From: Labilithrix sp.
GTDB taxonomy: Bacteria; Myxococcota_A; Polyangia; Polyangiales; Polyangiaceae
NCBI GenBank assembly: GCA_019637175.1
Contig: JAHBWD010000010.1
Span: forward strand, 62,715 to 126,714
Direction of reading: 5' to 3'
DNA: 64,000 nucleotides
The number at the start of each line of letters is the position of its first letter. Position 1 is the stretch's first letter. Shown here in pieces: positions 1,948-34,160 of this stretch. The position numbers and the translations under genes are program-made. The notes beneath the pieces were generated by a model. It saw only the letters and a program-made list of their open reading frames with translations, had not been told where the DNA came from and did not search any database.

Positions 1948-4650
1948 ATGGGTGCGAGGCCGGATCCCGACGCGCTGCTCGCGCGGATCAGCGAAGGCGA
2001 GCGCCGCGCGCGGCGCGGCAAGCTGACCGTCTTCTTCGGCGCCGCACCAGGCGTGGGCAAGACCTACGCGATGCTCGAGGCCGCCCGCTTCGAGCGCGAA
2101 GACGGCCGCGACGTGGTCGTCGGGATCGTCGAGACGCACGGCCGCTACGACACCGGCGCGTTGCTCCTCGGCCTCGAGATCCTTCCGCGCCGAAAGTTCG
2201 AGCACAAAGGCGTGCTCCTCCAGGAGCTCGACGTCGACGCGTGCCTCGCGCGCCGCCCCGGCGTCGTCCTCGTCGACGAGCTCGCCCACACCAACGCGGA
2301 GGGCTCACGCCACACGAAGCGATGGCACGACGTCGACGAGCTCCTCGACGCCGGCATCGACGTCTACACGACGCTCAACGTCCAGCACCTCGAGAGCCTC
2401 AACGACGTCGTCGCGCAGATCACGCACGTCGTCGTCCGCGAGACGGTGCCCGACTCGGTGCTCGACGAGGCCGACGAGATCAGGCTCATCGATCTGCCGA
2501 TCGACGAGCTCCTCGAGCGCCTCAGGCAGGGCAAGGTGTACGTCCCGGCGCAGGCGGAGATCGCGAGCGAGCACTTCTTCCGCCCGGGCAACCTCATCGC
2601 GCTGCGCGAGCTCGCGCTGCGCATCACCGCGCAGGCGGTCGACGCCCAGATGCGTCGCTACAAAGAGGAGCACGGGATCGAGAGCACGTGGGCCGCGACC
2701 GAGCGCGTGCTCGTGTGCGTGAGCCCGAGCCCCGCCTCGTCGCGCCTCGTGCGCGGGGCGCGGCGCCTCGCGGGCAGCTTGCACGCGGATTGGATCGCCG
2801 CGTTCGTCGAGACGAGCGCCCTCAGGCTCACGTCGCAGGATCGCGCGCGCGTGGCCCGGCACCTCCAGCTCGCGCGCACGCTCGGCGCCGAGAGCGTGAC
2901 CCTCTCGGGCGAGAACGGCGCCGAGGAGGTGATCCGCTTCGCGCGCCAGCGCAACGTCACCCGCATCGTCGTGGGCAAGCCCACGCATGCCACGTGGCGC
3001 GATCGCCTCCGCGGCTCGTTCCTCGACGCCGTCGTGCGCCTGAGCGGAGACATCGACGTCCACGTCATCTCGGGCAGGAGCGACGCGCCTCGCGATCGCA
3101 CATCGCCCGAGCTTCCAGCCGCGCCGTCTCCCGCGGCCGGGTTCGTCACGGGAGCGATCGCGACCGCGATCGCGACGCTCGCGGGCATCGAGGTCATCGG
3201 GCGGCAGCACGCCGACGTGATGATGCTCTACATGCTGGCGATCGTGCTCGTGTCGCTCCGATGGGGCACGCGCGCGTCGATCTTCACCGCGATCCTTTCG
3301 GCGCTCTCCTTCGACTTCTTCTTCGTGCCGCCGTACTACACGTTCGCCGTCGCCGACGTGCGCCACGTCGTCACGTTCGCCATCATGGTCCTCGTGGGCC
3401 TCGTCGTGAGCGGCCTCGCCACGCGCGTGAAGAACCAGGCGGAGGCGGCGCGCCAGCGCGAGGTTAGGACGGCGAGCCTCTACGCGCTGAGCCGCGCGCT
3501 CGCCGCCGCAAAGACGCGCCAGGAGATCATCGTCGCGGGCACCAAGCACGTCCAAGAGGTCTTCGGCGGCAAGACCGCCGCGCTCCTGCCCGGCGCCGAC
3601 GGCGCGCTCTCTTCGCGGGTCGACGAGCCGTGGACGTACCCCGTCGACGACAAGGAGCGAGGCGTCGCCGAGTGGGTCTGGCACCACGGTCGACCCGCAG
3701 GCGCGGGATCGGACACGCTGCCTTCGGCGAGCGCGCTCTACGTTCCGCTCGAGGGCCGAGACGGGCGGCTGGGCGTGCTCGGCATCGTCCCTCCGCGACC
3801 AGACATCCTCTCCCACGATCAAGAGCGCCGCCACCTCGAGGCGTTCACCGGCCTCATCAGCGCCGCGCTCGATCGCGCGCGTCTCGCGACGCAAGCGCAG
3901 GAAGCGCAGCTCCGCGTGGAGGCCGAGCAGCTCCGCAACTCGCTCCTCTCCTCGGTCTCGCACGATCTCCGAACGCCGCTCGCGGTCATCGCCGGGGCCG
4001 CGACGACGCTCTCCGACGAAGGTCTCGCGCCGACCGCTCGCCACGATCTCGCGGAGACGGTCGTGCAAGAGGCCGAGCGCCTCAACCGCCTCGTGCGAAA
4101 CCTCCTCGACATGACGCGCGTGGAGGCGGGCGCGCTGATCATCAAGAAGGAGTGGCAGCCGATCGAAGAGGTGGTGGGCGCCGCGCTCGGCGCGGTGGAG
4201 AGCGTGCTCGGCTCGCGCCCGGTGAAGACCGACATCCCTGCCGATCTGCTGGCGCCGTTCGACGCCGTCCTCGTCCAGCAGGCCCTCGTGAACCTCCTCG
4301 AGAACGCGGCGCGCTACGGCGGCGCCGACGGGCCGATCGAGATCCGCGCGCGCCGCGCGAACGACGACGTCGAGGTGCTCGTCGCCGATCGCGGGCCGGG
4401 CATCCCCAAGGGAGACGAGACGCGCATCTTCGACAAGTTCTACCGCGCCGGAAAAGCCAAGGGCGGCGGCGCCGGCCTCGGGCTCACGATCTGCCAGGGG
4501 ATCGTCACCGCGCACGGCGGGAAGATCTGGGCGGAGAACCGCGAGGGAGGCGGCGCGTCGTTCCACTTCACCCTGCCCTTCGAGGGTGAGCCCCCACGGC
4601 TCGAGCCCCCCGAGTCGAAGCGTCACGCCGAGGAGCTCCCCGCGCCATGA
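1948..4650 (+). CDS. kdpD: Osmosensitive K+ channel sensor histidine kinase KdpD
   Basis: N-terminal KdpD domain with Walker-A-like GAAPGVGKTYAML, a USP-like region, a 4-TM block, a GAF-like region, a HisKA H-box (SHDLRTPL) and HATPase N/G boxes. 900 aa. Its stop overlaps the kdpE start (ATGA). Confidence 0.95.
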   Translation: MGARPDPDALLARISEGERRARRGKLTVFFGAAPGVGKTYAMLEAARFEREDGRDVVVGIVETHGRYDTGALLLGLEILPRRKFEHKGVLLQELDVDACLARRPGVVLVDELAHTNAEGSRHTKRWHDVDELLDAGIDVYTTLNVQHLESLNDVVAQITHVVVRETVPDSVLDEADEIRLIDLPIDELLERLRQGKVYVPAQAEIASEHFFRPGNLIALRELALRITAQAVDAQMRRYKEEHGIESTWAATERVLVCVSPSPASSRLVRGARRLAGSLHADWIAAFVETSALRLTSQDRARVARHLQLARTLGAESVTLSGENGAEEVIRFARQRNVTRIVVGKPTHATWRDRLRGSFLDAVVRLSGDIDVHVISGRSDAPRDRTSPELPAAPSPAAGFVTGAIATAIATLAGIEVIGRQHADVMMLYMLAIVLVSLRWGTRASIFTAILSALSFDFFFVPPYYTFAVADVRHVVTFAIMVLVGLVVSGLATRVKNQAEAARQREVRTASLYALSRALAAAKTRQEIIVAGTKHVQEVFGGKTAALLPGADGALSSRVDEPWTYPVDDKERGVAEWVWHHGRPAGAGSDTLPSASALYVPLEGRDGRLGVLGIVPPRPDILSHDQERRHLEAFTGLISAALDRARLATQAQEAQLRVEAEQLRNSLLSSVSHDLRTPLAVIAGAATTLSDEGLAPTARHDLAETVVQEAERLNRLVRNLLDMTRVEAGALIIKKEWQPIEEVVGAALGAVESVLGSRPVKTDIPADLLAPFDAVLVQQALVNLLENAARYGGADGPIEIRARRANDDVEVLVADRGPGIPKGDETRIFDKFYRAGKAKGGGAGLGLTICQGIVTAHGGKIWAENREGGGASFHFTLPFEGEPPRLEPPESKRHAEELPAP

Positions 4651-5345
4651 CCGACGTCCACGTCCGCATCCTCGTCGTCGAAGACGAGCCGCAGATGCAG
4701 AAGTTTCTCCGGACGAGCCTCGCCGCGGAGGGCTATCGCGTCATCGAGGCCGACAACGGCCGAGACGGCATCGACTTCGCGCGCACGCACAACCCCGATC
4801 TCGTTCTGCTCGATCTCGGGCTGCCCGACATCGACGGCATGGACGTGACGAAGGCGCTCCGCGAGTGGAGCAACAAGCCCATCATCGTCATCAGCGCGCG
4901 CGGGCGGGAAGACGACAAGATCCGCGCGCTCGATCTCGGCGCCGACGACTACCTCACGAAGCCGTTCGGGACGGGCGAGCTCCTCGCGCGCATCCGCGTC
5001 GCCGTGCGGCGAGCGGTCCACGCCGGCCAAGAGCGACCCGATCCCGAGCTCACCGTGGGCGAGCTCCGCGTCGATCTCGACAAGCGCCGGGTGTTCGTCG
5101 CCGATCGCGAGATCCACCTCACGCCGAACGAGTACCGCCTCTTCACCGTGCTCATGAAGAACCCGGGCAAGGTCCTCACCCACCGTCAGCTCCTGAAGGA
5201 GGTCTGGGGCCCGGCATACGCGACGCAGACCCAGTACCTTCGCGTGTACATGGTGCAGCTCCGCCACAAGCTCGAACGCGATCCCGCGCGCCCGCGCTAC
5301 CTCGTGACGGAGCCCGGCGTCGGCTATCGGCTGAAGGCAGAGTGA
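4647..5345 (+). CDS. kdpE: OmpR-family response regulator KdpE
   Basis: Receiver domain (VVEDEP...DLVLLDLGLPDIDG...KP) plus a C-terminal Trans_reg_C winged helix (LTPNEYRLF...GYRL). Translationally coupled to kdpD. Confidence 0.95.
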   Translation: MTDVHVRILVVEDEPQMQKFLRTSLAAEGYRVIEADNGRDGIDFARTHNPDLVLLDLGLPDIDGMDVTKALREWSNKPIIVISARGREDDKIRALDLGADDYLTKPFGTGELLARIRVAVRRAVHAGQERPDPELTVGELRVDLDKRRVFVADREIHLTPNEYRLFTVLMKNPGKVLTHRQLLKEVWGPAYATQTQYLRVYMVQLRHKLERDPARPRYLVTEPGVGYRLKAE

Positions 5346-5432
5346 GCCGCGAGGCGCGACGGGTCGCGGCGACGCGACGTCGCACGCACCTTTACGACGT
5401 CTTGATGCGGTCGTGGTTACGGTGATCGACGC

Positions 5433-5513
5433 ATGGACGTCGTGTTCGTCGGTCTCACGCTCGTTCTCTTCGGAACGACGGTCGCCCTGATCCGCCTCTG
5501 CGAGCGCGTCTGA
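5433..5513 (+). CDS. Possible 26-aa hydrophobic membrane peptide in the kdpFABC leader (MDVVFVGLTLVLFGTTVALIRLCERV)
   Basis: ATG at 5433, TGA at 5511-5513. Single predicted TM helix, 17 nt upstream of kdpF. No homology can be asserted. Confidence 0.25.
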   Translation: MDVVFVGLTLVLFGTTVALIRLCERV

Positions 5514-5529
5514 CGCGCGGAGCTCCCTC

Positions 5530-5622
5530 ATGAACGTGCTCTACGTCGCGGCGGCGCTGCTCGCCGTCGCGCTCCTCGCCTACCTCGTCTTCGCGATGCT
5601 CGCGCCGGAGAAGCTCTCGTGA
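5530..5622 (+). CDS. kdpF: K+-transporting ATPase small subunit KdpF (30 aa)
   Basis: The 30-codon ORF encodes [30 protein letters not shown], a single TM helix with a C-terminal PEK tail like actinobacterial and proteobacterial KdpF. Its TGA stop overlaps the GTG start of kdpA (GTGA). Not present in the supplied ORF track. Confidence 0.7.
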   Translation: MNVLYVAAALLAVALLAYLVFAMLAPEKLS

Positions 5623-7358
5623 CGGCCAACGGCCTCCTCCAGTTGATCGTCTTCTGCGCGACGATCGCGCTCGCCGTGAAGCCCCTCGGCGGCTACATGG
5701 CGCGCGTCTATCGCGGTGAAGCGAAGATCGCGCGGCGGATCGTCGGGCCCGTCGAGCGCCTCGTCTATCGCGTCGCCGGCGTCTCGCCCGAAGAGGAGAT
5801 GACGTGGAGCAAGTATGCGCTCGTCGCCGTCTCGTTCAACGTCACCGGCGCGCTCACGGTCTACGTCCTTCAGCGCGCGCAGGGCTTCTTGCCGCTCAAC
5901 CCGATGCGCGCCGGCGCGGTCGCCCCCCACGCGGCGTTCAACACCGCGGTGAGCTTCGCGACCAACACGAACTGGCAGGCGAGCTCCGCCGAAGCGACGC
6001 TCAGCAACCTCACGCAGATGCTCGGCATCACCGTGCAGAACTTCACCTCCGCGGCGACGGGGATGGCGGTGCTCGTCGCGCTGACGCGCGGCCTCTCACG
6101 CAAGACGACGCCGACGCTCGGGAGCTTCTGGGTCGATCTCGTGCGGAGCACGCTCTACATCCTCCTACCGCTCTCGCTCGTCGTCGCGTTCGTGCTCGTG
6201 TCGCAGGGCGTCGTGCAGTCGTTCGCCGCGCCCGCGAGCGCCTCGCTGCTCCAAGCGACGAAGGACGTCGAAGGGCGCGCCGTCGCGCAGCAGGCGATCG
6301 TGCTCGGGCCGGCGGCCTCGCAGATCGCGATCAAGCAGCTCGGGACCAACGGAGGCGGCTTCTTCGCCACGAACGCGAGCCACCCCTTCGAGAACCCGAC
6401 GGGGATCTCGAGCTTCGTCGAGGTCGTGTCGATCCTCCTCGTCCCGGCGGCGCTGTGCTGCACCTTCGGCAGGCTCGTGAGGGACGCGCGCCAGGGCTGG
6501 GCCCTGCTCGCCGCGATGGTCGTCCTCTTCCTGCCGCTCCTCTTCTTTTGCATCACGCGCGAGCACGTGGGGAGCCCTGCGCTCGCGGGTCTGCCCGTCG
6601 ATCCGGCCGGCGGCAACATGGAGGGCAAGGAGGTGCGCTTGGGCGTCTTGGGATCGGCGCTCTGGGCCACGGCCACGACGGCCGCTTCGAACGGGTCGGT
6701 CAACGCGATGCTCGACTCGTTCACGCCGCTCGGCGGCCTCGTTCCGATGTGGCTCATGCAGCTCGGCGAGGTCGTCTTCGGCGGCGTCGGCTCCGGCCTC
6801 TACGGCATGTCGATGTTCGTGATCGTGGCGGTGTTCGTCGCCGGGCTCATGGTCGGGCGCACGCCCGAGTACCTCGGCAAGAAGATCGAGGCCTACGAGA
6901 TGAAGATGGCGTCGCTCGTCATCCTCGTTCCGCCGGCGCTCGTCCTCGTGGGCACGGCCGTCGCGTGCGTGACGGACGCGGGCCGGGCCGGCGTCTCCAA
7001 CCCGTCGGCGCACGGCTTCAGCGAGATCCTCTACGCGTTCTCGTCGACCGCGAACAACAACGGCAGCGCGTTCGCCGGCCTCCGCGCGAACACGCTCTTT
7101 TACGACACGATCCTCGGCGTGTGCATGTTCGTCGCTCGCTTCTGGCTCATCGTGCCCGTGCTCGCGCTCGCCGGCTCGCTCGCGAAGAAGAAGCGCGTTC
7201 CCCGCACCTCGGGCACGCTCCCCACGCACACGCCGCTCTTCGTCGGCATGCTCGTCGGAACGATCGTGATCGTGGGCGCCCTCACCTTCATCCCCGCGCT
7301 CGCGCTGGGCCCGATCGTCGAGCAGCTCGCCGGCGCGCGGGCGGGAGCGGCGCCGTGA
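5619..7358 (+). CDS. kdpA: K+-transporting ATPase subunit A (KdpA)
   Basis: 579-aa polytopic membrane protein with characteristic KdpA N-terminus [28 protein letters not shown] start overlaps the kdpF stop. Confidence 0.95.
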
Positions 7359-9448
7359 CGCCTCGCAGGCCCGTCGCCCTCTTCGAGCGTTCGATCGTGA
7401 AGCGCGCGCTCGTCGACGCGTTCAAGAAGCTCGATCCTCGCCACCAGATCCGGAATCCCGTCATGTTCGTCGTCGAGGTCGTGAGCCTCCTCACGACGGT
7501 GATCTTCGTGCTCGCCCTCGCGGGCAAGGGCGAGCACGCGATCGGCGCGGGGTTCACCTTCGCGATCTCGGTCTGCCTCTGGTTCACCGTCGTCTTCGCG
7601 GGGTTCGCCGAGGCGATGGCCGAAGGGCGCGGCAAGGCGCAGGCCGAGAGCCTTCGCCGCGCGCGAAGAGACATCCAGGCGAAGAAGCTCGCGGAGCCGT
7701 CGCCGCACGCAGCGCTCTCGATCGTCTCGTCGGCGGCGCTCCGGAGGGGCGACGTCGTCTTGATCGCGGCGGGCGACGACGTCCCGTGCGACGGCGAGAT
7801 CCTCGAGGGCGTCGCGTCGGTCAACGAGGCCGCGATCACCGGAGAGAGCGCCCCGGTGATCCGCGAGGCCGGCGGCGACCGCAACGCCGTCGTGGCGGGC
7901 ACCAAGGTGCTCTCCGACTGGATCGTCGTCCGCGTCTCCGCCGATCCGGGGCAGACGTTCCTCGATCGCATGATCTCGATGGTCGAAGGAGCGAAGCGCC
8001 AGAAGACGCCGAACGAGATCGCGCTCGACATCCTGCTCGCGGCGCTCACGATCATCTTCCTGCTCGCGACGGCGACGCTCTTGCCCTTCTCGATCTTCAG
8101 CGTCGAGGCCGCGGGCGCGGGCCGGCCGGTCGCCATCACGGTCCTCGTCGCGCTGCTCGTCTGCCTCATCCCGACGACGATCGGCGGCCTCCTCTCCGCC
8201 ATCGGCATCGCCGGCATGGATCGGATGATCCAAGCGAACGTGATCGCGACGTCGGGACGCGCGGTCGAAGCGGCGGGAGACGTCGACGTCCTCCTGCTCG
8301 ACAAGACGGGCACGATCACGCTGGGCAACCGGCAGGCGACGAAGCTCCACCCGGCGCCGGGCGTGACGGAGGCCGAGCTCGCCGACGCCGCGCAGCTCGC
8401 GTCGCTCGCCGACGAGACGCCGGAGGGTCGGAGCATCGTCGTCCTCGCGAAGGAGAAGTTCGGCATCCGCGAGCGCGGTATCCGCGAGCTCGGCGCCGTC
8501 TTCGTGCCGTTCACCGCGCAGACGCGGATGAGCGGCGTCGACATCCCTGCGGGCCCGTCGAGCGCGGCGCGCGAGCTGCGAAAGGGCGCGTCGGAGTCGG
8601 TCGAGCGATACGTCGCTGCGCGCGGCGGCGCGTTCCCCGCCGCCGCGACCGCGATCGTGAGGAAGATCGCGAAGAAGGGCGGCACGCCGCTCGTGGTCGC
8701 CGAAGGCCCGAGGGTGCTCGGCGTCGTCGAGCTCAAGGATGTCGTGAAGGGCGGGATCAAGGAGCGCTTCACCGAGCTTCGAAGGATGGGGATCAAGACG
8801 GTGATGATCACCGGCGACAACCCGCTCACCGCCGCGGCCATCGCGGCCGAGGCCGGCGTCGACGACTATCTCGCGGAGGCGACGCCGGAGGCGAAGCTCG
8901 CGCTCATCCGCGAGCACCAGCGCGGCGGCCGCCTCGTGGCGATGACGGGCGACGGCACGAACGACGCGCCCGCGCTCGCGCAGGCCGACGTCGCCGTCGC
9001 GATGAGCTCGGGGACGCAGGCGGCCAAGGAGGCCGGCAACATGGTCGACCTCGACTCGAACCCGACGAAGCTCATCGAGATCGTCGCCATCGGCAAGCAG
9101 ATGCTGATGACGCGCGGCGCGCTCACGACGTTCAGCATCGCCAACGACATCGCCAAGTACTTCGCGATCATCCCCGCGGCGTTCGCGGTCACGTATCCCC
9201 AGCTCGACACGCTCAACATCATGCGCCTGACGACGCCGGAGAGCGCGATCCTGAGCGCGGTCATCTTCAACGCGCTCATCATCGTCTTTCTGATCCCGCT
9301 CGCGCTCCGGGGCATCTCGTTCGAGCCGATCCCGGCCGCGCGGCTCTTGCGCCGCAACCTCCTCGTCTACGGCGGCGGCGGCGTCATCGTCCCGTTCGTC
9401 GGGATCAAGCTGATCGACGTCGTCCTCGACCTCCTCCACCTGGCGTGA
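7355..9448 (+). CDS. kdpB: K+-transporting P-type ATPase subunit B (KdpB)
   Basis: GTG at 7355 overlaps the kdpA stop (GTGA). P-type ATPase motifs are present: [21 protein letters not shown]. The track only shows this as part of a frame-fused 1214-aa ORF starting inside kdpA. Confidence 0.95.
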
Positions 9449-9456
9449 GGGATCGC

Positions 9457-10056
9457 ATGAGCTCCGCTGCGTCCATCCTCCGTGCCTCGGTCACGATGCT
9501 CTTGGCGCTCACGCTCGTCACCGGCGTCGCCTATCCCCTCGCGGTGACGGGCTTCGCCCGCGCATTCTTTCCCGAGCGCGCGGGCGGCAGCCTCTTGCGA
9601 CAGGGCGGCGTCGTCGTGGGCTCGCGGCTCATCGGCCAACCCTTCGACGATCCGAGCTACTTCTGGGGCCGCCCCTCGGCGACGACGCCGTTCGCGTACG
9701 ACGCCGCGGCCTCGCGGGGCTCGAACCTCGGCCCGACCAACGCAGCGCTCACCGCCGCCGCCCGCGCGCGCATCGAGGCCCTTCGCCTCGCCGATCCCGA
9801 CAACACGGCGACCGTCCCCGTCGATCTCGTCACCGCCTCGGGCAGCGGCCTCGATCCCCACATCAGCCTCGCCGCCGCCGAGGTTCAGGTCCGCCGCGTC
9901 GCCCGCCTCCGCGGCCTCTCCGAGTCACGCGTCCGCGCGATGGTCCAAGCGCACACGGTCGAGCGCGGCCTCGGCATCTTCGGCGAGCCCGCCGTCGAGG
10001 TTCTTCCCCTCAACCTCGCCCTCGACGCCGAGGCTCCCAACCCATCGAGGCCGTAG
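9457..10056 (+). CDS. kdpC: K+-transporting ATPase subunit C (KdpC)
   Basis: ATG at 9457, 9 nt after the kdpB stop. 199 aa with an N-terminal TM helix and the conserved ...PFDDPSYFWGRPSA... and GSGLDPHIS motifs. The track shows it only as the tail of a frame-fused ORF. Confidence 0.9.
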   Translation: MSSAASILRASVTMLLALTLVTGVAYPLAVTGFARAFFPERAGGSLLRQGGVVVGSRLIGQPFDDPSYFWGRPSATTPFAYDAAASRGSNLGPTNAALTAAARARIEALRLADPDNTATVPVDLVTASGSGLDPHISLAAAEVQVRRVARLRGLSESRVRAMVQAHTVERGLGIFGEPAVEVLPLNLALDAEAPNPSRP

Positions 10057-10172
10057 AGAGAGGAAAGGAGAGGCGCGGAGACGCGGAATTGTTCCTGTTC
10101 TCGTCGATCGCAGCAGCGAGAGCACGCGAGCAAGAAGAGCTCCGCGCCTCCGCGCCTCTCTTTCCTGTCTCT
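10057..10172. terminator. Long imperfect inverted repeat between convergent kdpC and kup; probable bidirectional terminator or structured element
   Basis: The left arm AGAGAGAGGAAAGGAGAGGCGCGGAGACGCGG at 10057-10088 pairs with the right arm CTCCGCGCCTCCGCGCCTCTCTTTCCTGTCTCT at 10140-10172, with about 50 nt between them. It shares a roughly 25-nt core (GAAAGAGAG-G/A-CGC-G/T-GAGGCGC) with the element at 29859-30185. Confidence 0.45.
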
Positions 10173-12070
10173 TACAGCTCAATCTGAGTACCGAGCTCGA
10201 CGACGCGGTTCGGCGGTATTCGAAAGAACGCGTTCGCCGGCCGCGCGTTGCGCGACAAGAACGCGAAGAGGACCTTGCGCCAGCGCGCCATGCCGCGCTC
10301 GTCGGTGATGAGGAGCGTCTCGCGCCCGAGGAAGAAGCTCGTGTCGGCCCGGCGCGTCTCGAGACCCTTCTCGGCGCACAGATCCATCAGCTCGAGGACG
10401 TTGGGCGTCTGCATGAAGCCGTAGGCGGCGGTGACTTGGTAGAAGCCCTGACCGATGTCGTTCAGCTCCACGATGCGGCTCCGGCGCGGCACCTCGGGCA
10501 CGTGCCGCGTCGCGATCGAGAGAAGCAGCACTTGCTCGCAGAGCGTCTTGTTGTGCTTGAAGTGATGGAGGAGAACGGGCGGCGCGCCCTTGGGGTTCGA
10601 GGTCATGAACACCGCGGTGCCCTGCACCCGATGGGGCCTCGTGGCCTCGATGTCTGCCATGAAGAGATCGAGCGGCAGCGTCTGCGCGAGGTAGCGCTGA
10701 CCGAGGAGCGCACGACCGCGCCGCCACGTCGTCATGACGGTGAAGACGACCGCGCCGATCGCGAGGGGCACCCATCCGCCGCTCCCCAGCTTGGGGAGGT
10801 TCGCGGAGAAGAACGAGAGATCCACGGCGAGGAAGAGCAGCGTGAGCGCGGCCGCGGGGAGGATGCCCCACTTCCACCTTCGTCGCGCGATCGCGAAGAA
10901 CAAGACCGACGTGATGCTCATCGTGCCCGTCACGGCGATGCCGTAGGCCGCGGCGAGCTTCGACGACGATCCGAAGCCGACGACCAGCGTGACGCACGCG
11001 ACGAGCAGGCCCCAGTTGACCTCGGGCACGTAGATCTGCCCCTCGCTCGAGCCCGACGTGTGAACGATCGAAACGCGGGGAAAGAAGCCGAGCTGCACGG
11101 CCGCGCGCGCGAGCGAGAACGCCCCCGAGATCAACGCCTGCGAGGCGATGCACGCCGCCGCCATCGCGATGGCGCTGAGCGGGATTTTGTGCCAGCCGTC
11201 GACGAGGCCGAAGAAGGAGTGCGACTCCGTCGGCCTCGAGAGGAGCAGCGCGCCTTGACCGAAGTAGTTGAGCAAGAGCGCGGGGAAGACGACCGCGTAC
11301 CACGCGAAGCGGATGGGCGCTTTGCCGAAGTGCCCCATGTCGGCGTAGAGCGCCTCGCCGCCGGTGATGCAGAGAACGACGGAGCCGAGGAGGAAGAAGC
11401 CGTGCACGCGATCGTGGGCGAAGAAGCGGACGGCATGGCGCGGATCCACCGCCTGGAGCACGTCGGGCCGCTTGATGATCCAGCGAAGCCCGATGATCGC
11501 GATCGTGGCGAACCACACGAGCATGAACGGCCCGAAGATCGCGCCGACGCCGCCCGTTCCGCGCTTCTGTAGCGCGAACAGGCCGACGATGATCGCGACG
11601 GAGATGTAAACGACGTAAGGCTCGAAGGCGCCGGTGGCCTCCTTGAGGCCCTCGACCGCGCCGAGCACGGAGACGGCGGGCGTGATGATCCCCTCGCCGC
11701 TCAGCAGCGCCGCGCCGAAGAGGCCGAGCAAGACGAGCGCGATCCCCGACTTCGTCTTCTCGATGGCCTTCGGCTCGAGGAGCGCGATGAGCGCGAACGT
11801 TCCCCCTTCGCCGTCGTTGTCTGCGCGCATCACGAACGTGAGGTACTTGACGACGATGACGAGCGTGAGCGCCCAGAAGAAGAGCGAGAGAATGCCGAGC
11901 ACGTTCGCTTCGGTGACGCGCGTACCGTGCGCGGCCTTGAACGACTCTCGCATCGCGTAGAGCGGCGAGGTGCCGATGTCGCCGTACACGACGCCGAGGG
12001 CGGCGACGGAGAGCGCGCCGAGGCTCGAGCGGCCGTGACCTGGAGGGTGCGATCCGACAGGAGAGCTCAC
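10172..12070 (-). CDS. kup: KUP/HAK/KT-family potassium uptake protein
   Basis: 632 aa. N-terminal LGVVYGDIGTSPLYA signature, 12 TM segments and a cytoplasmic C-terminal domain. Confidence 0.95.
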   Translation of the reverse strand: MSSPVGSHPPGHGRSSLGALSVAALGVVYGDIGTSPLYAMRESFKAAHGTRVTEANVLGILSLFFWALTLVIVVKYLTFVMRADNDGEGGTFALIALLEPKAIEKTKSGIALVLLGLFGAALLSGEGIITPAVSVLGAVEGLKEATGAFEPYVVYISVAIIVGLFALQKRGTGGVGAIFGPFMLVWFATIAIIGLRWIIKRPDVLQAVDPRHAVRFFAHDRVHGFFLLGSVVLCITGGEALYADMGHFGKAPIRFAWYAVVFPALLLNYFGQGALLLSRPTESHSFFGLVDGWHKIPLSAIAMAAACIASQALISGAFSLARAAVQLGFFPRVSIVHTSGSSEGQIYVPEVNWGLLVACVTLVVGFGSSSKLAAAYGIAVTGTMSITSVLFFAIARRRWKWGILPAAALTLLFLAVDLSFFSANLPKLGSGGWVPLAIGAVVFTVMTTWRRGRALLGQRYLAQTLPLDLFMADIEATRPHRVQGTAVFMTSNPKGAPPVLLHHFKHNKTLCEQVLLLSIATRHVPEVPRRSRIVELNDIGQGFYQVTAAYGFMQTPNVLELMDLCAEKGLETRRADTSFFLGRETLLITDERGMARWRKVLFAFLSRNARPANAFFRIPPNRVVELGTQIEL

Positions 12071-12179: not shown

Positions 12180-14162
12180 ATGGCCGCTTCCCCAACTCGT
12201 TTGAAGGCTCCGCCTTCGGCGGCCGACCTGCGGGCGCAGGCCCAGCGGCGGCCGCTCGCGAAAGAGGCGGCGCCCTCGCACGCGCCGCACATCGAAGGCG
12301 CGCGCGATCTCGCCAAGCTCTCGCTCGCGGCGCTCGGGGTGGTCTACGGCGACATCGGCACGTCGCCGCTCTACGCGATCCGCGAGTGCTTCACCTTGCC
12401 GCAAGGCGTCGCGGTGACGCAGGCGAACGTGCTCGGTGTGCTCTCGCTGTTCTTCTGGGCGCTCACGCTCGTCATCGTCGTCAAGTACCTCTCGTTCATC
12501 ATGCGCGCCGACAACCGCGGCGAAGGAGGCATCCTCGCGCTGCTCGCGCTGCTCAAGGCGAAGCCGAACGCGGGCAGGCGCCGGTCGGTCGTCGTGTACG
12601 TGCTCGCGGCGCTCCTCGGCACGGCGCTGCTCTACGGTGACGGCGTCATCACGCCGGCGATCTCGGTGCTCGGCGCGATGGAAGGCCTCGGTCTGACGTC
12701 GACCTTCTTCGACAAGCCCGTGATCGTGACGCTCGCCGTCGGCGTCCTCGTCGGCCTCTTCCTCGCGCAGCGCGCGGGCACGGCGCGGGTCGGCGCGATC
12801 TTCGGGCCGGCGATCCTCGTCTGGTTCGTGACCATCGGCACGCTCGGCGTCTACTGGATCGCGCAGCGACCCGAGGTCTTGCTCGCCGTCGATCCGCGGC
12901 ACGCGGCGCACTTCTTCGCCGAGCATCGGCTCCACGGGTTCCTCATCCTCGGGTTCGTGTTTCTCTGCGTGACCGGCGGCGAGGCGCTCTACGCCGACAT
13001 GGGTCACTTCGGGAAGACACCGATCCGCGTGGCGTGGTTCACGGTCGCGTTCCCTGCGCTCCTCGCGAGCTACTTCGGACAAGGCGCGCTGCTGCTCACG
13101 AAGGGCGCGGTCGAGAACCCGTTCTTCGAGACGGTCTCCGGCGCCGCGCGCTACGGCCTCATCGGCGTCGCGACGATCGCCGCGGTGATCGCGTCACAAG
13201 CGCTCATCTCGGGATCGTTCTCCCTCACCCAGCAGGCCGTGCAGCTCGGCTACTTCCCGCGCGTGTCGATCAAGCACACTTCTGGCCGAGCCGAAGGGCA
13301 GATCTACGTGCCCGAGGTCAACTACGGGCTCATGGTCGCGTGCATCGCCCTCGTGCTCGCGTTCCAAGACTCCAGCCGCTTCGCGTCGGCCTACGGGATC
13401 GCCGTCACCGGGACGATGGCGATCACGAGCGTCCTCTTCTACGGCGTCGCGCGCCGATGGGGCTGGAGCAAGCTCGCCGCCGGCGGCCTCGTCGCGCTGT
13501 TTTTGACGCTCGATCTCTCGTTCTTCGGCGCGAACGTCCACAAGATCGCCGACGGCGGCTGGTTTCCCCTCGCCGTCGGCGCCGTCATGTTCACGATGAT
13601 GACGACCTGGCGTCGCGGGCGGGAGCTCATCGGCCAAGCGTTCGCCGCGCAGGCGCTCTCGCTCCGGGCCTTCATGCACGATCTGCACGCCGCCAAGCCT
13701 CCTCGCGTCGCCGGCACGGCGGTCTTCCTCACGTCGAGCCACGGCGGCGTCCCCGCGGTCCTCCTCCACTACTTCAAGCACAACAAGGTGCTCCACGAGC
13801 AGGTCGTCCTCCTCTCGATCGCCACGCGACACGTGCCCGAGATCCGGCGCATCGATCGCGTGAGCGAGATCGAAGATCTCGGACTCGGCTTCCATCGCGT
13901 ACAGGGGCAGTACGGCTTCATGCAGACGCCGAACGTCCTCGAGCTGATGGACGTGTGCGCGGAGAAGGGCCTCGAGACGCGCGAGGCCGACACGAGCTTC
14001 TTCCTCGGACGCGAGTCGCTCCTCATCACGGATAAACGCGGGATGGCGAAGTGGCGCAAGCACGTCTTCGCGTTCCTGAGCCGCAACGCGCGACCGGCGA
14101 CGGCGTTCTTCCAGATCCCGCCGAACCGCGTGGTCGAGCTCGGCGCGCAGATCGAGCTCTGA
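12180..14162 (+). CDS. kup: KUP/HAK/KT-family potassium uptake protein, second paralog, divergent to the first
   Basis: 660 aa, about 70-75% identical to the upstream kup across the core (LGVVYGDIGTSPLYA..., ...VLLHHFKHNK/VLLHYFKHNK...). The N-terminal 50 aa is Ala/Pro-rich, so the true start may lie a little downstream. Confidence 0.9.
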   Translation: MAASPTRLKAPPSAADLRAQAQRRPLAKEAAPSHAPHIEGARDLAKLSLAALGVVYGDIGTSPLYAIRECFTLPQGVAVTQANVLGVLSLFFWALTLVIVVKYLSFIMRADNRGEGGILALLALLKAKPNAGRRRSVVVYVLAALLGTALLYGDGVITPAISVLGAMEGLGLTSTFFDKPVIVTLAVGVLVGLFLAQRAGTARVGAIFGPAILVWFVTIGTLGVYWIAQRPEVLLAVDPRHAAHFFAEHRLHGFLILGFVFLCVTGGEALYADMGHFGKTPIRVAWFTVAFPALLASYFGQGALLLTKGAVENPFFETVSGAARYGLIGVATIAAVIASQALISGSFSLTQQAVQLGYFPRVSIKHTSGRAEGQIYVPEVNYGLMVACIALVLAFQDSSRFASAYGIAVTGTMAITSVLFYGVARRWGWSKLAAGGLVALFLTLDLSFFGANVHKIADGGWFPLAVGAVMFTMMTTWRRGRELIGQAFAAQALSLRAFMHDLHAAKPPRVAGTAVFLTSSHGGVPAVLLHYFKHNKVLHEQVVLLSIATRHVPEIRRIDRVSEIEDLGLGFHRVQGQYGFMQTPNVLELMDVCAEKGLETREADTSFFLGRESLLITDKRGMAKWRKHVFAFLSRNARPATAFFQIPPNRVVELGAQIEL

Positions 14163-29089: not shown

Positions 29090-29470
29090 TCAGCAGTGAA
29101 CGAGCTGTGGGCCCCGGACGCCGAGCGCCTCGAAGAGGACGCGCAGGTCCTCCGCGTCGCTCGTGAAGAGCTGTCGGGGACCGCGCGCTGCGACGATCGC
29201 GACGTGCGCATCGCAGATGTCTGCCGTTCGGGCCTTGCCGCAGAGCTTGCCGACGTCCATGGCGATGGGGTCGAACGCAGCGATCACACAGTGCTTCAGG
29301 ACCTTCGCGAGTCGTGCCTGTCGTGCGCTCGCCCGCCAGACCTGCGCGACCGCCGTGCTCGGCGCGATGACGTCTTCCGTAGCGAGCGCCGCGTCCTTCA
29401 GCGCGCGCCACAGGACGCGATCGTCACGTTCGATCGCGATGAGGGCGCCGGCATCGAGTACGATGCTCAC
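29090..29470 (-). CDS. vapC: PIN-domain toxin (VapC-like) of a type II toxin-antitoxin pair
   Basis: 126 aa. N-terminal MSIVLDAGALIAIERDD carries the PIN acidic residues. 4-nt overlap with the upstream antitoxin ORF. Confidence 0.75.
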   Translation of the reverse strand: MSIVLDAGALIAIERDDRVLWRALKDAALATEDVIAPSTAVAQVWRASARQARLAKVLKHCVIAAFDPIAMDVGKLCGKARTADICDAHVAIVAARGPRQLFTSDAEDLRVLFEALGVRGPQLVHC

Positions 29471-29730
29471 ACCGACCGGCGAGAACGGCCCGAGCGAGTC
29501 CGTCGTGAGGGCTTCGAGGGTTTCACGGCTCGTCGAGCCGGCGGAGACGGCTCATCCAGCGGGCCGTGCTCCTGCTCCCACTCCCCCACGACCTCGAGCA
29601 GCCCCTGGGCACGAAGCTTCCTCCGTGCCGCATCCGCGAGCCACGACGAGGTTGGTTCCTTGCCGGCAGCCTTCTTGACCGCACGAGCGAGCTCCGCGTC
29701 GAGAGAGATCGCCAGCCGCGCAACCGTCAT
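29467..29730 (-). CDS. vapB: Ribbon-helix-helix-type antitoxin (VapB-like) with Lys/Arg/Pro-rich C-terminal tail
   Basis: 87 aa. N-terminal MTVARLAISLDAELARAVKKAA fits an RHH/CopG DNA-binding fold. Lies immediately upstream of, and overlapping, the PIN gene. Confidence 0.65.
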   Translation of the reverse strand: MTVARLAISLDAELARAVKKAAGKEPTSSWLADAARRKLRAQGLLEVVGEWEQEHGPLDEPSPPARRAVKPSKPSRRTRSGRSRRSV

Positions 29731-29830
29731 ACCGCGATATTACGATCGTGCCTCACTCGGTGCAAGTGCGGGTGGCGGTCTCGATCGCCACTGCTGCGCT
29801 TCGAGGTCCGATCTCGGCGAGACGAAGCTC

Positions 29831-30205
29831 TGACGAGAGAAGAGAGAGACGAGAGCTCGAAAGAGAGACGCTGAGGCGCCGAAGGTGCTCGCGGGCGTCG
29901 CTCCTCCTTCGTCGCCCTTCGGGTGCTCGCAAAGTTCGCGGACGAACTTTGCTGCGCAGTTGGGAGTCTCGCTTCCGATGCGCCGCGCCCTGCCGCTCTG
30001 CAGAGCTTCGGCGCGCGATCTCGGAACACGCGCGCGAAGGCGCAACGAGGTCGTCGGTCGGAAGAGAGGTCTCCCCTCGCGCAGGAAACTTGCGTCTTCG
30101 CAAGTTTCCGAGCACCGCAGAGCGGCCCGCGAGAGGAGGCGCTCGCAGCACGCCCTCACGCTCCGCGCCTCAGCGCCTCTCTTTCCCCTCTCTCTCGAGA
30201 GAGAG
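29831..30205. repeat. Highly structured about 375-bp intergenic element bounded by about 22-nt inverted repeats (MITE-like or structured ncRNA candidate) and containing perfect palindromes
   Basis: GA-rich tract 29831-29880 ends in GAAAGAGAGACGCTGAGGCGCC (29859-29880). Its reverse complement GCGCCTCAGCGCCTCTCTTTC lies at 30165-30185. Internal perfect hairpins are GCAAAGTTCG-CGGA-CGAACTTTGC (29929-29952) and GGAAACTTGCG-TCT-TCGCAAGTTTCC (30084-30109). The same about 25-nt motif recurs at 10057-10172. Confidence 0.4.
30188..30205 (-). terminator. Perfect 18-nt palindrome CTCTCTCTCGAGAGAGAG directly downstream of the regulator gene stop (hairpin terminator candidate)
   Basis: Lies 10 nt 3' of the stop of the minus-strand gene ending at 30215; 7-bp GC/AT-mixed stem with a 4-nt loop. 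No T-tract, as is usual in high-GC genomes. Confidence 0.35.
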
Positions 30206-30214
30206 CGAGCGCCC

Positions 30215-32710
30215 TCACGCGCGCACGAGCGGCGTGACGACGACGAGCAGGTAGCCCTCGGGGCGCGTCTCGAGCAGATCGCGGAGCCCCATCTTCCGAA
30301 GCGTCGCCACCGCGACGCGCACCCGATGCGACGCGGCGCTCGCGATCGCCTTCTCCCCGGGCCACGCCGCGGCGAACAGCGTCGCGGAGGAGACCGGCGC
30401 GTCGGGACGCTCGATCCGCTCGGCGGCGAGGCGATCGAGCAGGAGCGCGAGCGACTTGCGGCGCTCGAGGCCCACGCGCGACGCCGCAGGCGCGCGAAAC
30501 CAGCTCCCTCCCGCGCCGATCACGAGCGCGTCGGCCGGCGGCGCGGCCCCCGGGCTCGCCACCGCGACGACGCGCGCGAGGATGCGCGCGTAGAGCGATC
30601 CCGCGGGAGGCGACCACGACGCGGCGACGCCGTCGAGCGCCGCGAGGTGTACGCCGAACCACTGCGCATCGGCGCTCTCGAGGGGCGCGTGATCGCGCGC
30701 GTCCGCGAGCAGCGCGTAGGCTTCGGCCGCGGCGCCGCGCTCTCGCGCGAGGACGCCGAGGTGACCGCGCGCGTTCGCGGCCTCGCGCGCGAGGCCGTGA
30801 ACCGCGTAGACATCGCGCGCCGCCGCCAGCGACGACGCCGCGCCTTCGAGATCGCCCGAGGCGTGTCGAACGATCCCCGTCGCCTCGCGCGCCGTCGCTT
30901 CGCTCCTCGGATCGCGCTCGATCGACGACGCGTCGATCGCCGCGTCGAGGCTCGCCTTCGCCGCCGGCAGGTCGCCCGCGTCGGCGCACGCGCGCGCGTG
31001 CTCGACGAGGAGGCCCGCGCGGCGCGCGCGGTCTCGATCCGGCGCAAGAAGCGCCAGCGCCCGCTCGAGGAGCGCGCGCGCGTCGGTCACGACGTTCGAG
31101 ACCGACGCCTGGAGCGCGAGCGCGTCGGCCTGGCGCGCGCGCGCGCCGAGCGCGGCGAACGCCTGCGTAGCGCGCTCGAAGTGCTGGCGCGCCGCGTCGC
31201 GCTCGCCGCCCGCGAGCACGGTCTTTCCGAGCTCGAGGCCGGCGTCCGCCGCGACGAGGCCGTGGCCGAGCGCGCGCGCGAGCGACTCGGCGGCGAGCAG
31301 ATCCTTGAGCGCGCCGCGGAGATCGCCGCGCTCGCGGCGGAGCGCGCCGCGCAGGATCGTCGCGCGCGCCGTGAGCCCCGGATCGGCGCCCGAGTCGCGC
31401 GTGCGCTCGACGACGGGCGCGACGAGCGACGCGATCGACGCGAGCGGACCTCGCGCGAGCAAGACGCTGCTCAGCGCGACGAGGCCGCGCAGCGCCTGGT
31501 CCGCGCGCTGCGACGTGATCGATCCCCCGAGGACGCGCTCGACGACCGCGAGCACGTTCTCGCGTTCGTCGACGAGCCACGTGCGCGCGGAGGCGTCACG
31601 GTCCGCTTCGCGCGCGGCGCGCTCGGCCTCGGCGACGAACCACGCGGCGTGGCGCTCCTCGGCCTGCGCGATCGGCGCCGCGCGCTCGCGCACCACGTAG
31701 GCGCGCACCGCTCCGTAGAGATCGAAACGCGCTCCCTCGCGGCGACGCACGAGCGACTTGCCGGCGAGCGCGTCGAGCGCGTCGAGCGCCGACGAAGGCG
31801 GCGCGATCTCGACGACCGCGTCCACCGCGGCCGCCGTGAAGCCGCCGCGAAACACCGTGAGCTGCGCGAGCACGTCGCGCTCGTCGGGCGTCAGCGCGTC
31901 GAACGATCCGCGCACCGCGGCCTCGACCGACGCGTGTCGATCGGGACCGCCGCGCGCGGCGCGCGCGAGCGGCTCGGCGGAGCTTCGCAGGCGATGCAAG
32001 AGCGCTCGCGCGCCGAAGAGCGGAAGGCGCGCGCCCACGATCTCGAGCGCGAGGGGCACGCCCTCCATGAGCGCGACGATCTCCGACGCGTACGCGGCCT
32101 CGTCGTCACGGAGCGCAAACGCGTGCGCCCCCTTCTGCGCCGTCGCGACGAGGAGCTCGATCCCTTCGTCGAGCGCGCCGATCTCGTGCACCACCTCGCC
32201 CACGATCGCGAGACGCTCGCGCGACGTCACGATCATCTCCGCTTCGGGCGCAGCGTCGAGCCACGCGCCGGCGGTCGCGAGCGCGTGCTCGACGAGGCCG
32301 TCGAAGTTGTCGACGACGACGACGATCGCGCCGCGCGCCGCGAGCGCGGCGCCGACGCCCGCGACGCCGTCGTCGCTCGCGTCGAGGACGGCGTCGCAGG
32401 CCGCGGCCATCGCGTCGACGATCCCCGCGAGATCGCGCGCCGCCGAGAGATCGCAGAACAGCGCCGCCTCGCGCGCCCCTCGCGTGACGCGGCGCGAAGC
32501 ATGCTCCACCGCGAGCGCCGTCTTGCCGATGCCCCCCGGGCCGAGCAGCGTGACGAGGCGCGTGCCTTCGTCGAACCGCGCCGCGAGCGCGTCGAGATCA
32601 CGGCGCCGGCCCACGAAGGGGACCGCGCGCGGGAGGGTCGTCGAGGAAGACGGCGTCACGGGTTCAATCTGCCACAAGGATCTCTCGGTCGTCGCGCCGT
32701 CCGCTACCAT
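30215..32710 (-). CDS. NB-ARC/STAND ATPase - TPR-like - C-terminal OmpR/SARP-type winged-helix transcriptional regulator (AfsR-like with permuted domain order)
   Basis: 831 aa with Walker A LLGPGGIGKT and an NB-ARC-like region, then a long Ala/Leu/Arg helical-repeat region. The C-terminal approximately 70 aa SLALLLDRLA...LFAAAWPGE...SHRVRVAVATLRKMGL...EGYLL matches the Trans_reg_C consensus. Its start codon lies only about 11 nt from the divergent kinase start, so one of the two starts may be downstream. Confidence 0.85.
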   Translation of the reverse strand: MVADGATTERSLWQIEPVTPSSSTTLPRAVPFVGRRRDLDALAARFDEGTRLVTLLGPGGIGKTALAVEHASRRVTRGAREAALFCDLSAARDLAGIVDAMAAACDAVLDASDDGVAGVGAALAARGAIVVVVDNFDGLVEHALATAGAWLDAAPEAEMIVTSRERLAIVGEVVHEIGALDEGIELLVATAQKGAHAFALRDDEAAYASEIVALMEGVPLALEIVGARLPLFGARALLHRLRSSAEPLARAARGGPDRHASVEAAVRGSFDALTPDERDVLAQLTVFRGGFTAAAVDAVVEIAPPSSALDALDALAGKSLVRRREGARFDLYGAVRAYVVRERAAPIAQAEERHAAWFVAEAERAAREADRDASARTWLVDERENVLAVVERVLGGSITSQRADQALRGLVALSSVLLARGPLASIASLVAPVVERTRDSGADPGLTARATILRGALRRERGDLRGALKDLLAAESLARALGHGLVAADAGLELGKTVLAGGERDAARQHFERATQAFAALGARARQADALALQASVSNVVTDARALLERALALLAPDRDRARRAGLLVEHARACADAGDLPAAKASLDAAIDASSIERDPRSEATAREATGIVRHASGDLEGAASSLAAARDVYAVHGLAREAANARGHLGVLARERGAAAEAYALLADARDHAPLESADAQWFGVHLAALDGVAASWSPPAGSLYARILARVVAVASPGAAPPADALVIGAGGSWFRAPAASRVGLERRKSLALLLDRLAAERIERPDAPVSSATLFAAAWPGEKAIASAASHRVRVAVATLRKMGLRDLLETRPEGYLLVVVTPLVRA

Positions 32711-32721
32711 GGAGTCTCGCG

Positions 32722-34140
32722 ATGCGCGTGCGCCTCGACAAGTACGAGATCGCCCATCGGTCGGCGCAGACCCGGAGCCTCCTCGCGTTCGTCTTCGGCG
32801 GCATCGGCATCGTCGTCTTCGGCTTCCTCACGTTCCTCGGCGCGATCATGTTCGTGCTGCCCACGGGCGACGGCGGCGGCCTCTACGCGCAGCGAAGCGG
32901 GATCGTCGTCGGTCTCTTCATGGGCGCGATGCCGACGGTGATCAGCACGCTCGTCGTGGTTTGGGGCGCGAAGAAGCGCGCGCGGTTCCGCCGCCTCGGC
33001 GCGCTCGCCGGCCTCGCGCGCCAAACGCCGCTCTTGACCACGTCGCACGTCGCGCAGTCGCTCCGCCTATCGCCGATCGACGCCGACGGCCTCGTGCTCG
33101 AGGCGACCGCGCTCGGGCTCATCGACGACGGTCCCCACGCCACGCCCGTGACGGCCGGCGCGCTCGCGCCCACGGTCGCGAGCGACGGCGCGGGGCCATC
33201 GAATCCGCCGCCCGCAGGCGAGCGCGTCGGCCCCGGCACCGTGCTCGGCGGCGCCTATCGCATCGAGGAGCCGCTCGGCCGCGGCGGCATGGGCGAGGTC
33301 CACGCGGCGCGCCACCTGCGAACCGGGCGCCGATACGCGGTCAAGACGATCCTCCCCGGCGCGCGCGTCAACGACGCGCTCGTCCGCCGCTTCGAGCGTG
33401 AGGCGACCGCCGCGAGCGCGATCGGCCATCCCGGAATCGTTCAGGTCCACGACTTCAACGTCGCGCCCGGTGGGCTCTTCTACCTCGTGATGGATCTGCT
33501 CGAGGGCGAGACGCTCGCGACGCGGCTCGAGCGCACCTCCGCGCTGTCTTGGCCCGAAGCGCGGCGGATCGCGACCGAGCTCTGCGCCGCGCTCGGCGCC
33601 GCGCACGATCACGGCTTGCTCCATCGCGACATCAAGCCGGGCAACATCTTCCTCGCGAAGAGCGCGGCGAGGCCGTCACCTCCCGAGCGGGCCGTGCTCG
33701 TCGACTTCGGTCTCGTCAAGCCGATGGAGGAGACCTCGGCGGTCACGAGCACCGGGGCGGTGGTCGGCACGCCCATGTACATGTCGCCCGAGCAAGCGCG
33801 CGGCGAGACGCTCGACGTTCGCTCCGATCTCTACAGCCTCGCCGCCGTCATCTTCGAGATGATCACGGGCGCGCCGCCCTTCATCGATCGAACGATGGCG
33901 TCGGTGTACGCGCGTCTGCTCAAGGATCCGCCGCCTCGGGCTTCGCAGGTGTCGAGCCGCGCGATCCCTCCCGCGGTCGACGACGTGCTCGTCAAGGCGC
34001 TCGCGAAGGATCGCGCCGCGCGCTTCGGGCACGCGCGCCTCTTCGGAGAAGCGCTCGCGAGCATCGCGCCCGACGCCGCCGGCGCCGGGCCGCGCCCCGA
34101 AGAGGGCGCCGCGCCGACCACCGAGCGCATGGTGAATTGA
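32722..34140 (+). CDS. Hanks-type Ser/Thr protein kinase with N-terminal 2-TM membrane anchor and C-terminal kinase domain
   Basis: 472 aa. Kinase subdomains are present: GRGGMGEVHAA, AVK, HRDIKPGNIFL, DFGLVK, GTPMYMSPE. The N-terminal 100 aa is hydrophobic, and the linker contains an HTH-like segment (LLTTSHVAQSLRLSPIDADGLVLEATALGLI). Confidence 0.9.
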   Translation: MRVRLDKYEIAHRSAQTRSLLAFVFGGIGIVVFGFLTFLGAIMFVLPTGDGGGLYAQRSGIVVGLFMGAMPTVISTLVVVWGAKKRARFRRLGALAGLARQTPLLTTSHVAQSLRLSPIDADGLVLEATALGLIDDGPHATPVTAGALAPTVASDGAGPSNPPPAGERVGPGTVLGGAYRIEEPLGRGGMGEVHAARHLRTGRRYAVKTILPGARVNDALVRRFEREATAASAIGHPGIVQVHDFNVAPGGLFYLVMDLLEGETLATRLERTSALSWPEARRIATELCAALGAAHDHGLLHRDIKPGNIFLAKSAARPSPPERAVLVDFGLVKPMEETSAVTSTGAVVGTPMYMSPEQARGETLDVRSDLYSLAAVIFEMITGAPPFIDRTMASVYARLLKDPPPRASQVSSRAIPPAVDDVLVKALAKDRAARFGHARLFGEALASIAPDAAGAGPRPEEGAAPTTERMVN

Positions 34141-34160
34141 TCGCGTGATACGCTCGGCGC

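Follow-up and report, generated by a model that had tools for sequence, protein, structure and literature searches.

Palindromic elements of the MITE/ERIC type, which include the Correia/NEMIS elements of Neisseria and the 127-bp ERIC/IRU of enterobacteria, are 100-150 nt long, imperfectly palindromic and bounded by terminal inverted repeats, are found in transcribed intergenic regions near gene ends, and can act as terminators or as sites of RNA processing or stability. They also occur as longer variants with extra internal sequence, and Correia elements duplicate TA. REPINs typically reach tens to hundreds of copies per genome, and multicopy repeats typically break assemblies. Short tandem units are the hallmark of the short tandemly repeated repetitive (STRR) sequences of heterocystous cyanobacteria, which are made of heptamers and which, to our knowledge, have been reported from cyanobacteria only. 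REPINs consist of two inverted REP sequences that a transposase called RAYT mobilises (Bertels and Rainey, PMC3116915, PMC3337134). In Geobacter metallireducens, 48 multicopy sites with four tandem octanucleotide repeats each were described, most of them paired on opposite strands at a variable distance, and were proposed to be binding sites of a regulator (PMC2700814). No repeat family of such a type was found for Labilithrix or other Myxococcales in the literature searched. The family described here, from a 64-kb stretch of Labilithrix sp. DNA with a G+C content of 70% (the window), is previously undescribed, and the kind of element it represents is itself ordinary.

Results

The 115-base gap between the stop codons of kdpC and kup is taken up entirely by one long palindrome, here called W1 (10055-10172), which agrees with the first-pass annotation of an inverted repeat of about 115 nt between these two convergent genes. 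Both neighbours were recognised by Pfam. kdpC (9448-10056, plus strand), the last gene of a kdpD-kdpE-kdpA-kdpB-kdpC cluster, ends in a TAG at 10054-10056 whose last two bases are the first two of W1, and kup (10172-12070, minus strand) ends in a TAA at 10172-10174 whose first base (10172) is the last base of W1; the overlap of the second arm with the kup stop codon, also pointed out in the annotation, is of this single base. Since the C-terminus of Kup (...GTQIEL*) is identical to the last residue in 40 homologues, the kup gene is unaltered and W1 starts exactly at its end. The Kup of the window is 100% identical to NCBI MBX3187420.1.

Both arms quoted in the annotation are present where it had placed them. 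The left one (10055-10086, plus strand) is 88% purine and carries the conserved core GAGAGGAAAGGAGAGGCGCGGAGACGCGGAA, and the right one (10140-10172, minus strand) reads AGAGACAGGAAAGAGAGGCGCGGAGGCGCGGAG on the minus strand and contains, at 10140-10158, 2.4 perfect tandem copies of the octamer CTCCGCGC as called by TRF. These outer arms match at 29 of 32 positions and constitute terminal inverted repeats, whereas the two halves of the inner part (10087-10139) match at only about 60-65%; this inner part is self-complementary, is not common to the other copies described below, and has its apical loop near 10111-10114. The repeat search reported W1 as arms of 40 nt, 80% complementary, with 19 nt between them, and an outer pair of 13 nt (92%).

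On either strand, the minimum-energy fold of W1 is one hairpin in which 52 base pairs lead up to an apical loop of 4 nt (-83.1 kcal/mol for the plus and -84.2 kcal/mol for the minus strand), with z-scores of -9.1 and -8.5, respectively, and none of 200 shuffled sequences folding as well. The arms of about 30 bp around a loop of about 50 nt that had been proposed earlier must be corrected in this respect, because the interior pairs too and makes the hairpin continuous. Folding of both loci, which the annotation had recommended, gave a strong hairpin also for the second element, W2, introduced below (-224.7 kcal/mol on the plus and -226.5 kcal/mol on the minus strand; z-scores of -7.5 and -6.1). 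In both folds the strength is equal on the two strands and there is no G-U bias, which favours a symmetry at the DNA level over a strand-specific RNA gene. A sliding-window scan of folding energy was discarded for its lack of discrimination in a genome of 70% G+C.

As a GC-rich stem-loop directly downstream of a stop codon, W1 has the basic feature of an intrinsic terminator. It was not called by a consensus terminator scan, there being no run of five T in eight after the stem, and its U/C-rich trailer, UCUCUUUCCUGUCUCUU, is part of the base of the stem and has only about 10 U in 17. No Rfam (15) model matched the 64-kb window at its gathering score, and the E-value mode returned only far sub-threshold matches, nearly all of them to miRNA-precursor models with long hairpins.

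The core, a purine-rich sequence of 21-31 nt, was searched for as GAAAGAGAGRCGCKGAGGCGC with up to three mismatches and was found at 10064 (plus), 10144 (minus), 29859 (plus) and 30165 (minus) and nowhere else in the 64 kb, with a mean of 0.07 matches in shuffled sequences, which never gave four. All four are arms of two palindromes, W1 and W2, and an nhmmer profile of the arms recovered exactly these four in the window and nothing further. The annotation had already reported that the core recurs at the ends of an element at about 29831-30205, with about 26 of 30 positions identical; the best pair between the two elements, the right arm of W1 and the right arm of W2, reaches 28 of 31. Its own alternative of a coincidental GA-rich likeness is contradicted by these counts, and also by the recurrence of the core in a second genome, Labilithrix sp. 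RYN_370, presented below.

W2, the second member of the family, is a nested palindrome of 381 nt (29827-30207) with a left core arm at 29853-29889 (plus strand, GAAAGAGAGACGCTGAGGCGCCGAA) and a right core arm at 30155-30197 (minus strand, reading GGGGAAAGAGAGGCGCTGAGGCGCGGAGC). Inside it there are two mini-hairpins, at 29929-29952 (GCAAAGTTCG-CGGA-CGAACTTTGC) and at 30084-30109 (GGAAACTTGCG-TCTT-CGCAAGTTTCC), which are mirror partners; the counterpart of the former in the RYN_370 element is a GAAACT...AGTTTC hairpin module. The right end of W2 lies 8 nt from the stop of a gene for an 831-aa AAA_16-type ATPase (30215-32710, minus strand), and both elements are thus found at gene 3' ends, as the annotation had it, W1 abutting two stops and W2 following one. 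Downstream of W2 there are two small genes on the same strand as the ATPase gene (29090-29730, minus strand), the nearer of which begins about 100 nt beyond the element; the product of one (87 aa) looks like a ribbon-helix-helix protein by eye and has no Pfam match, and that of the other (126 aa) has a weak PIN match (E-value of 0.016), below the cut-off.

Among the non-coding inverted repeats of the window, W1 and W2 are the longest. The longest inverted repeat overall (11938-12022 and 12309-12393; 85 nt, 82% complementary) is coding and is formed by the 5' coding ends of divergent kup paralogues (approximately 65% identical), the second paralogue being a 660-aa KUP/HAK/KT gene at 12180-14162 on the plus strand. 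Other repeats were also observed in the window. Two adjacent tandem duplicates of about 390 aa each (38359-39528 and 39530-40705), neither with a Pfam match, contain DNA blocks that are 78-86% identical at a spacing of 1177-1186 nt. The region 55678-56523 has repeats of about 150 nt ending in ...GCGCCCCAGCAG, with copies at 55686, 55836, 55986 and 56481, which may belong to a repeat-containing protein on one strand, the rough gene call having no clear gene there. At 50285-50494, at the 3' end of SRP54/ffh (50152-51783, minus strand), short GC-rich repeats (ATGCCGGGGAAGCCGCCCATGCC...) and a palindrome of 27 nt were seen; these repeats probably encode a Met/Gly-rich C-terminal tail.

A scan of 185,579 species-representative genomes with the exact core pattern gave 32 single matches. 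Two of these are true family members, both in Labilithrix sp. RYN_370, about 12 belong to octamer arrays in other phyla, and the remainder are unrelated sequences, among which are five pairs of orthologous loci in related species. RYN_370 is a different metagenome-assembled genome (MAG) from that of the window, as seen in their protein accessions (MDB4935176 vs MBX3187420). There, the core forms the ends of a nested palindrome of about 450 nt at no fewer than two loci, L002 and L004, which are 90.6% identical over 351 nt. The left arm of W1 and the left arm of L002 are identical at 29 of 31 positions, and W2 can be aligned with the RYN_370 element over about 245 nt (nhmmer E-value of 3.6e-5) with the same order of modules. 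The contig of L004 appears to end inside the palindrome (L004 1-345), which is consistent with a multicopy repeat interrupting the assembly, and copy counts from these MAGs are to be read as lower bounds. Metagenomes were scanned with a 24-mer of the core and with a 25-mer from inside the RYN_370 element, with no match, and a scan of viral contigs had none either. Judged from these alignments, the family is real and common to at least two genomes, W1 being a short form that shares only the ends, and the copies are homologous to each other and located at unrelated loci in the two genomes, 0-50 nt from stop codons.

The ends of the family are two inverted purine-rich sequences of about 31-35 nt, each with a GA leader, the motif GAAAG and two octamers of consensus RGAGRCGC. 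The interior differs between copies and is palindromic all the same, its approximate length being 50 nt for W1, 270 nt for W2 and 370 nt for the RYN_370 element, and sequence conservation is highest in the octamer part of the arms. A REP unit is typically an imperfect palindrome in its own right and starts with a conserved tetranucleotide of the GTAG type. A single arm of the present family is barely palindromic, with only a mini-stem of 4-5 bp (GCGC-N4-GCGC). The GTAG or GTAA found at three of the outer edges corresponds to the stop codons of the flanking genes.

The other convergent gene pairs of the window are 12-50 nt apart. In five relatives, whose Kup is 80-84% identical, a histidine-kinase (HisKA) gene is found 9-40 nt past kup and there is no palindrome, and in two relatives the ATPase gene that neighbours W2 either overlaps with the adjacent gene or is 24 nt away from it. 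L002 could be compared with the related locus L040, to which it is 90% identical over 3.5 kb; in L040, 4 nt separate the permease gene from the adjacent one, and the homology stops 14 nt past the permease stop codon, which is the edge of the element. No copy was found in about 120 kb of related sequence; in the relatives the element is absent after the kup, ATPase and permease genes, and since another gene is the neighbour in every case, none of these is a clean, strictly orthologous empty site. The three complete elements are all located at points where the gene order differs from that of the nearest available relatives. Because no more than 40 nt separate the equivalent gene ends in the relatives from the following gene and no copy is present there, this looks like lineage-specific insertion into very short spacers, with the qualification that the compared sites carry different neighbour genes.

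No target-site duplication was seen at W1, whose flanks (...CCGT and TACAG...) contain no direct repeat, nor at W2 or L002. A duplicated TA at W1 was considered and rejected, because removal of the element together with one TA destroys the conserved kup stop. There is no transposase, Y1 or RAYT gene among the approximately 45 ORFs of the window.

The kdpD-kdpE-kdpA-kdpB-kdpC cluster (1948-10056) has no close relative. The best non-self homologue of KdpC is only 71% identical, and those with a name come from Nitrospirota, Planctomycetes and other taxa outside Labilithrix. The distance of these relatives and the presence of a histidine-kinase gene at the place of kdpC beside related kup genes suggest acquisition or relocation of the kdp locus, W1 lying where it joins kup. 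Another rearrangement was observed near W2, where a divergent pair of genes for an AAA_16/TPR ATPase and a Ser/Thr kinase (30215-34140) is inverted in comparison with L042 (3750-8403) and L043 (4589-8484), and W2 and the small toxin-antitoxin-like pair at 29090-29730 are at one junction of it. Inversion by recombination between two copies of the element was rejected, since the other junction, a gap of 20 nt at about 34140-34161, has no copy.

The core can be read as two tandem octamers, and the matches in other phyla, about 12 in number, are in longer arrays of GGAGACGC, with GGAGAAAG and GGGGACGC as octamer variants. In eight of them the GGAGACGC array is followed by a complementary array, and the two fold as hairpins with the purine side first. 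Where the context was checked, these hairpins come directly after the stops of housekeeping genes (ribD, asnB, clpB, phosphoribosyltransferase and response-regulator genes), and their hosts are Acidobacteriota, Planctomycetota (Pirellulales), Verrucomicrobiota (Chthoniobacterales) and Cyanobacteriota. Hairpins or arrays of this kind were seen at L016 (3541-3650), L007 (2250-2345), L009 (7112-7190), L012 (1201-1310), L027 (620-705), L003 (3960-4200), L019 (1850-2010) and L001 (2568-2800). The likeness between them is confined to the arrays, with none in the flanks. The exact 21-mer GAAAGGGAGACGCGGAGACGC is found in nine species-representative genomes of at least four phyla, and less than one occurrence is expected from a composition estimate. 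No match to the octamer hairpins was found in Rfam or in the literature. W1 resembles them in the consensus of the unit, in the order of purines before pyrimidines and in its place after stops; its arms contain 2-2.4 octamers each and do not match three units even when up to four mismatches are allowed. A palindrome of octamer repeats that looks similar was also observed in a Novosphingobium MAG (L029, 4900-5110).

Discussion

Our analysis indicates that W1 probably belongs to a small family of foldback elements that are palindromic, non-coding and restricted to one lineage, and that it probably works as a bidirectional 3'-end hairpin. An insertion or duplication would have brought the element into what had at first been a very short spacer. 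With the entire interval between the convergent genes taken up by W1, the kdpC and kup transcripts would each end in the GC-rich hairpin of 52 bp, at the base of which a leader rich in G and A on the 5' side would pair with a trailer rich in U and C on the 3' side, in the same layout from either strand, and such a hairpin could stop read-through into the opposing gene and protect the 3' ends of both mRNAs. The most likely role of W1 is to terminate the kdp and kup transcripts from both sides or to stabilise their 3' ends, and it would insulate these two convergent potassium uptake systems from each other. In the same way, W2 would form a boundary between the ATPase gene and the small unit of two genes that follows it. 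Elements of this family probably define transcript ends in a genome whose other convergent genes are separated by just 12-50 nt, and palindromic elements of such a kind also break metagenome assemblies.

The first-pass annotation had opposed a dispersed repeat family of REP/MITE-like character to a mere local terminator. The dispersal stands, given the core at a second palindrome of the window and at two loci of RYN_370, and the contrast is most likely a false one, W1 being likely both a terminator and a member of the family. The REP/MITE label holds only loosely, as membership in the strict sense and an abundance of that order are not established: there is no target duplication, the window has no transposase or RAYT gene, and the arms are barely palindromic. 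That W1 is instead a purely local bidirectional terminator, resembling the element at 29.8 kb by a GA-rich coincidence, is very improbable. Its location exactly between two convergent stop codons and its very stable hairpin on both strands are in keeping with that idea, but four core matches were found against the 0.07 expected, a number reached by no shuffle, a second MAG has the core with 29 of 31 positions identical, the consensus scan detected no U-tract, and the other convergent pairs of the window make do with spacers of 12-50 nt; on sequence grounds, the recurrence across genomes largely refutes it. A structured small RNA or cis-regulatory RNA made from one strand is scarcely credible in spite of the strong z-scores of the fold, because the dyad symmetry is complete, energies and G-U counts are equal on both strands, the interior is not conserved between copies and the element is absent from relatives; we rejected an sRNA or riboswitch on account of this full strand symmetry and of the lack of an Rfam match above threshold.

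Two other readings take the octamers as their starting point. Arrays of RGAGRCGC could have grown by slippage at transcript ends as simple-sequence hairpins, in which case the likeness between copies would be one of motif grammar and not a product of movement. The 2.4 perfect copies of CTCCGCGC detected by TRF in the right arm of W1 would fit such growth, as would the hairpins of three to five copies of GGAGACGC and their complement right after stops in other phyla, whose likeness does not extend beyond the arrays. We regard it as unlikely for the Labilithrix elements, however, whose arms share an ordered sequence of 31 nt (up to 29 of 31 identical) that includes the GA leader, which is not made of octamers; moreover, L002 and L004 have 351 nt in common, and the arms in the window have no more than two good octamers and are not matched by a pattern of three units. 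It is distinctly improbable that the opposite-strand octamers are paired binding arrays for a regulator, a nucleoid protein or a recombinase, a possibility raised by the resemblance of the layout of W1 and W2 to the paired octanucleotide sites of G. metallireducens (PMC2700814) and by the peak of conservation in the octamer part. There are just two octamers per arm, the rest of the element is palindromic as well, a feature for which a binding array would have no use, the elements are located at gene 3' ends and not at promoters, and there is no candidate protein.

A lineage-restricted repeat family with a probable role as 3'-end hairpins remains our preferred account of W1. It is conceivable, if doubtful, that the Labilithrix core is one lineage's version of a wider, undescribed class of transcript-end hairpins built from tandem GGAGACGC octamers. 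If this were true, an octamer shared across phyla would imply either a common biochemical constraint or an unrecognised way of generating arrays. The constraint could be on termination or on a conserved protein or structure, and the GG runs that recur every 8 nt could form G-quadruplexes. Should such a class be upheld, it would be a more interesting result than the Labilithrix family.

In architecture, the closest described elements are REPINs and the MITE/ERIC-type palindromes, and by analogy the present family may be called REPIN/MITE-like, its membership in either group being unproven. Like REPINs, the Labilithrix elements have two conserved inverted units of about 30 nt with a less conserved spacer between them, and W1, at about 100 nt overall, forms a long hairpin and is extragenic, non-coding and lineage-restricted. 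They differ from REPINs in that each arm alone is barely palindromic (GCGC-N4-GCGC only), in a spacer that ranges from 50 to 370 nt within the family, in the absence of a RAYT gene from the window, where two elements were seen in 64 kb, and in a copy number that is possibly low; in addition, REPINs have been described mainly from pseudomonads and enterobacteria. With the Correia and ERIC elements, compared by description, the family shares an imperfect palindrome of 100-150 nt that has inverted repeats at its termini and lies near gene ends, as well as longer forms with added internal sequence, but it has no target-site duplication, no matching insertion sequence in the window and no sequence similarity to them, and it belongs to another phylum and to a genome of 70% G+C.

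W1 also resembles a bidirectional intrinsic terminator, since its GC-rich hairpin lies exactly between two stops and is bordered by a purine-rich, A-tract-like leader and a U/C-rich trailer that are the same from both sides. Unlike such terminators, it has a stem of 52 bp, far longer than usual, its trailer fails the 5-of-8 T rule, and it belongs to a repeat family. The STRR sequences are likewise short tandem intergenic units, closer to the cross-phylum octamer arrays than to W1, but they are heptamers, whereas W1 has octamers and only two units per arm. The sites of G. metallireducens differ from the Labilithrix arms in the octamer itself (GTTGCTYN), in having four repeats per site instead of two, and in being proposed binding sites and not hairpins at gene ends. 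They are nevertheless multicopy intergenic tandem octamers arranged in opposite-strand pairs at a variable distance, and by this analogy they appear to be the nearest precedent that we found for the octamer arrays.
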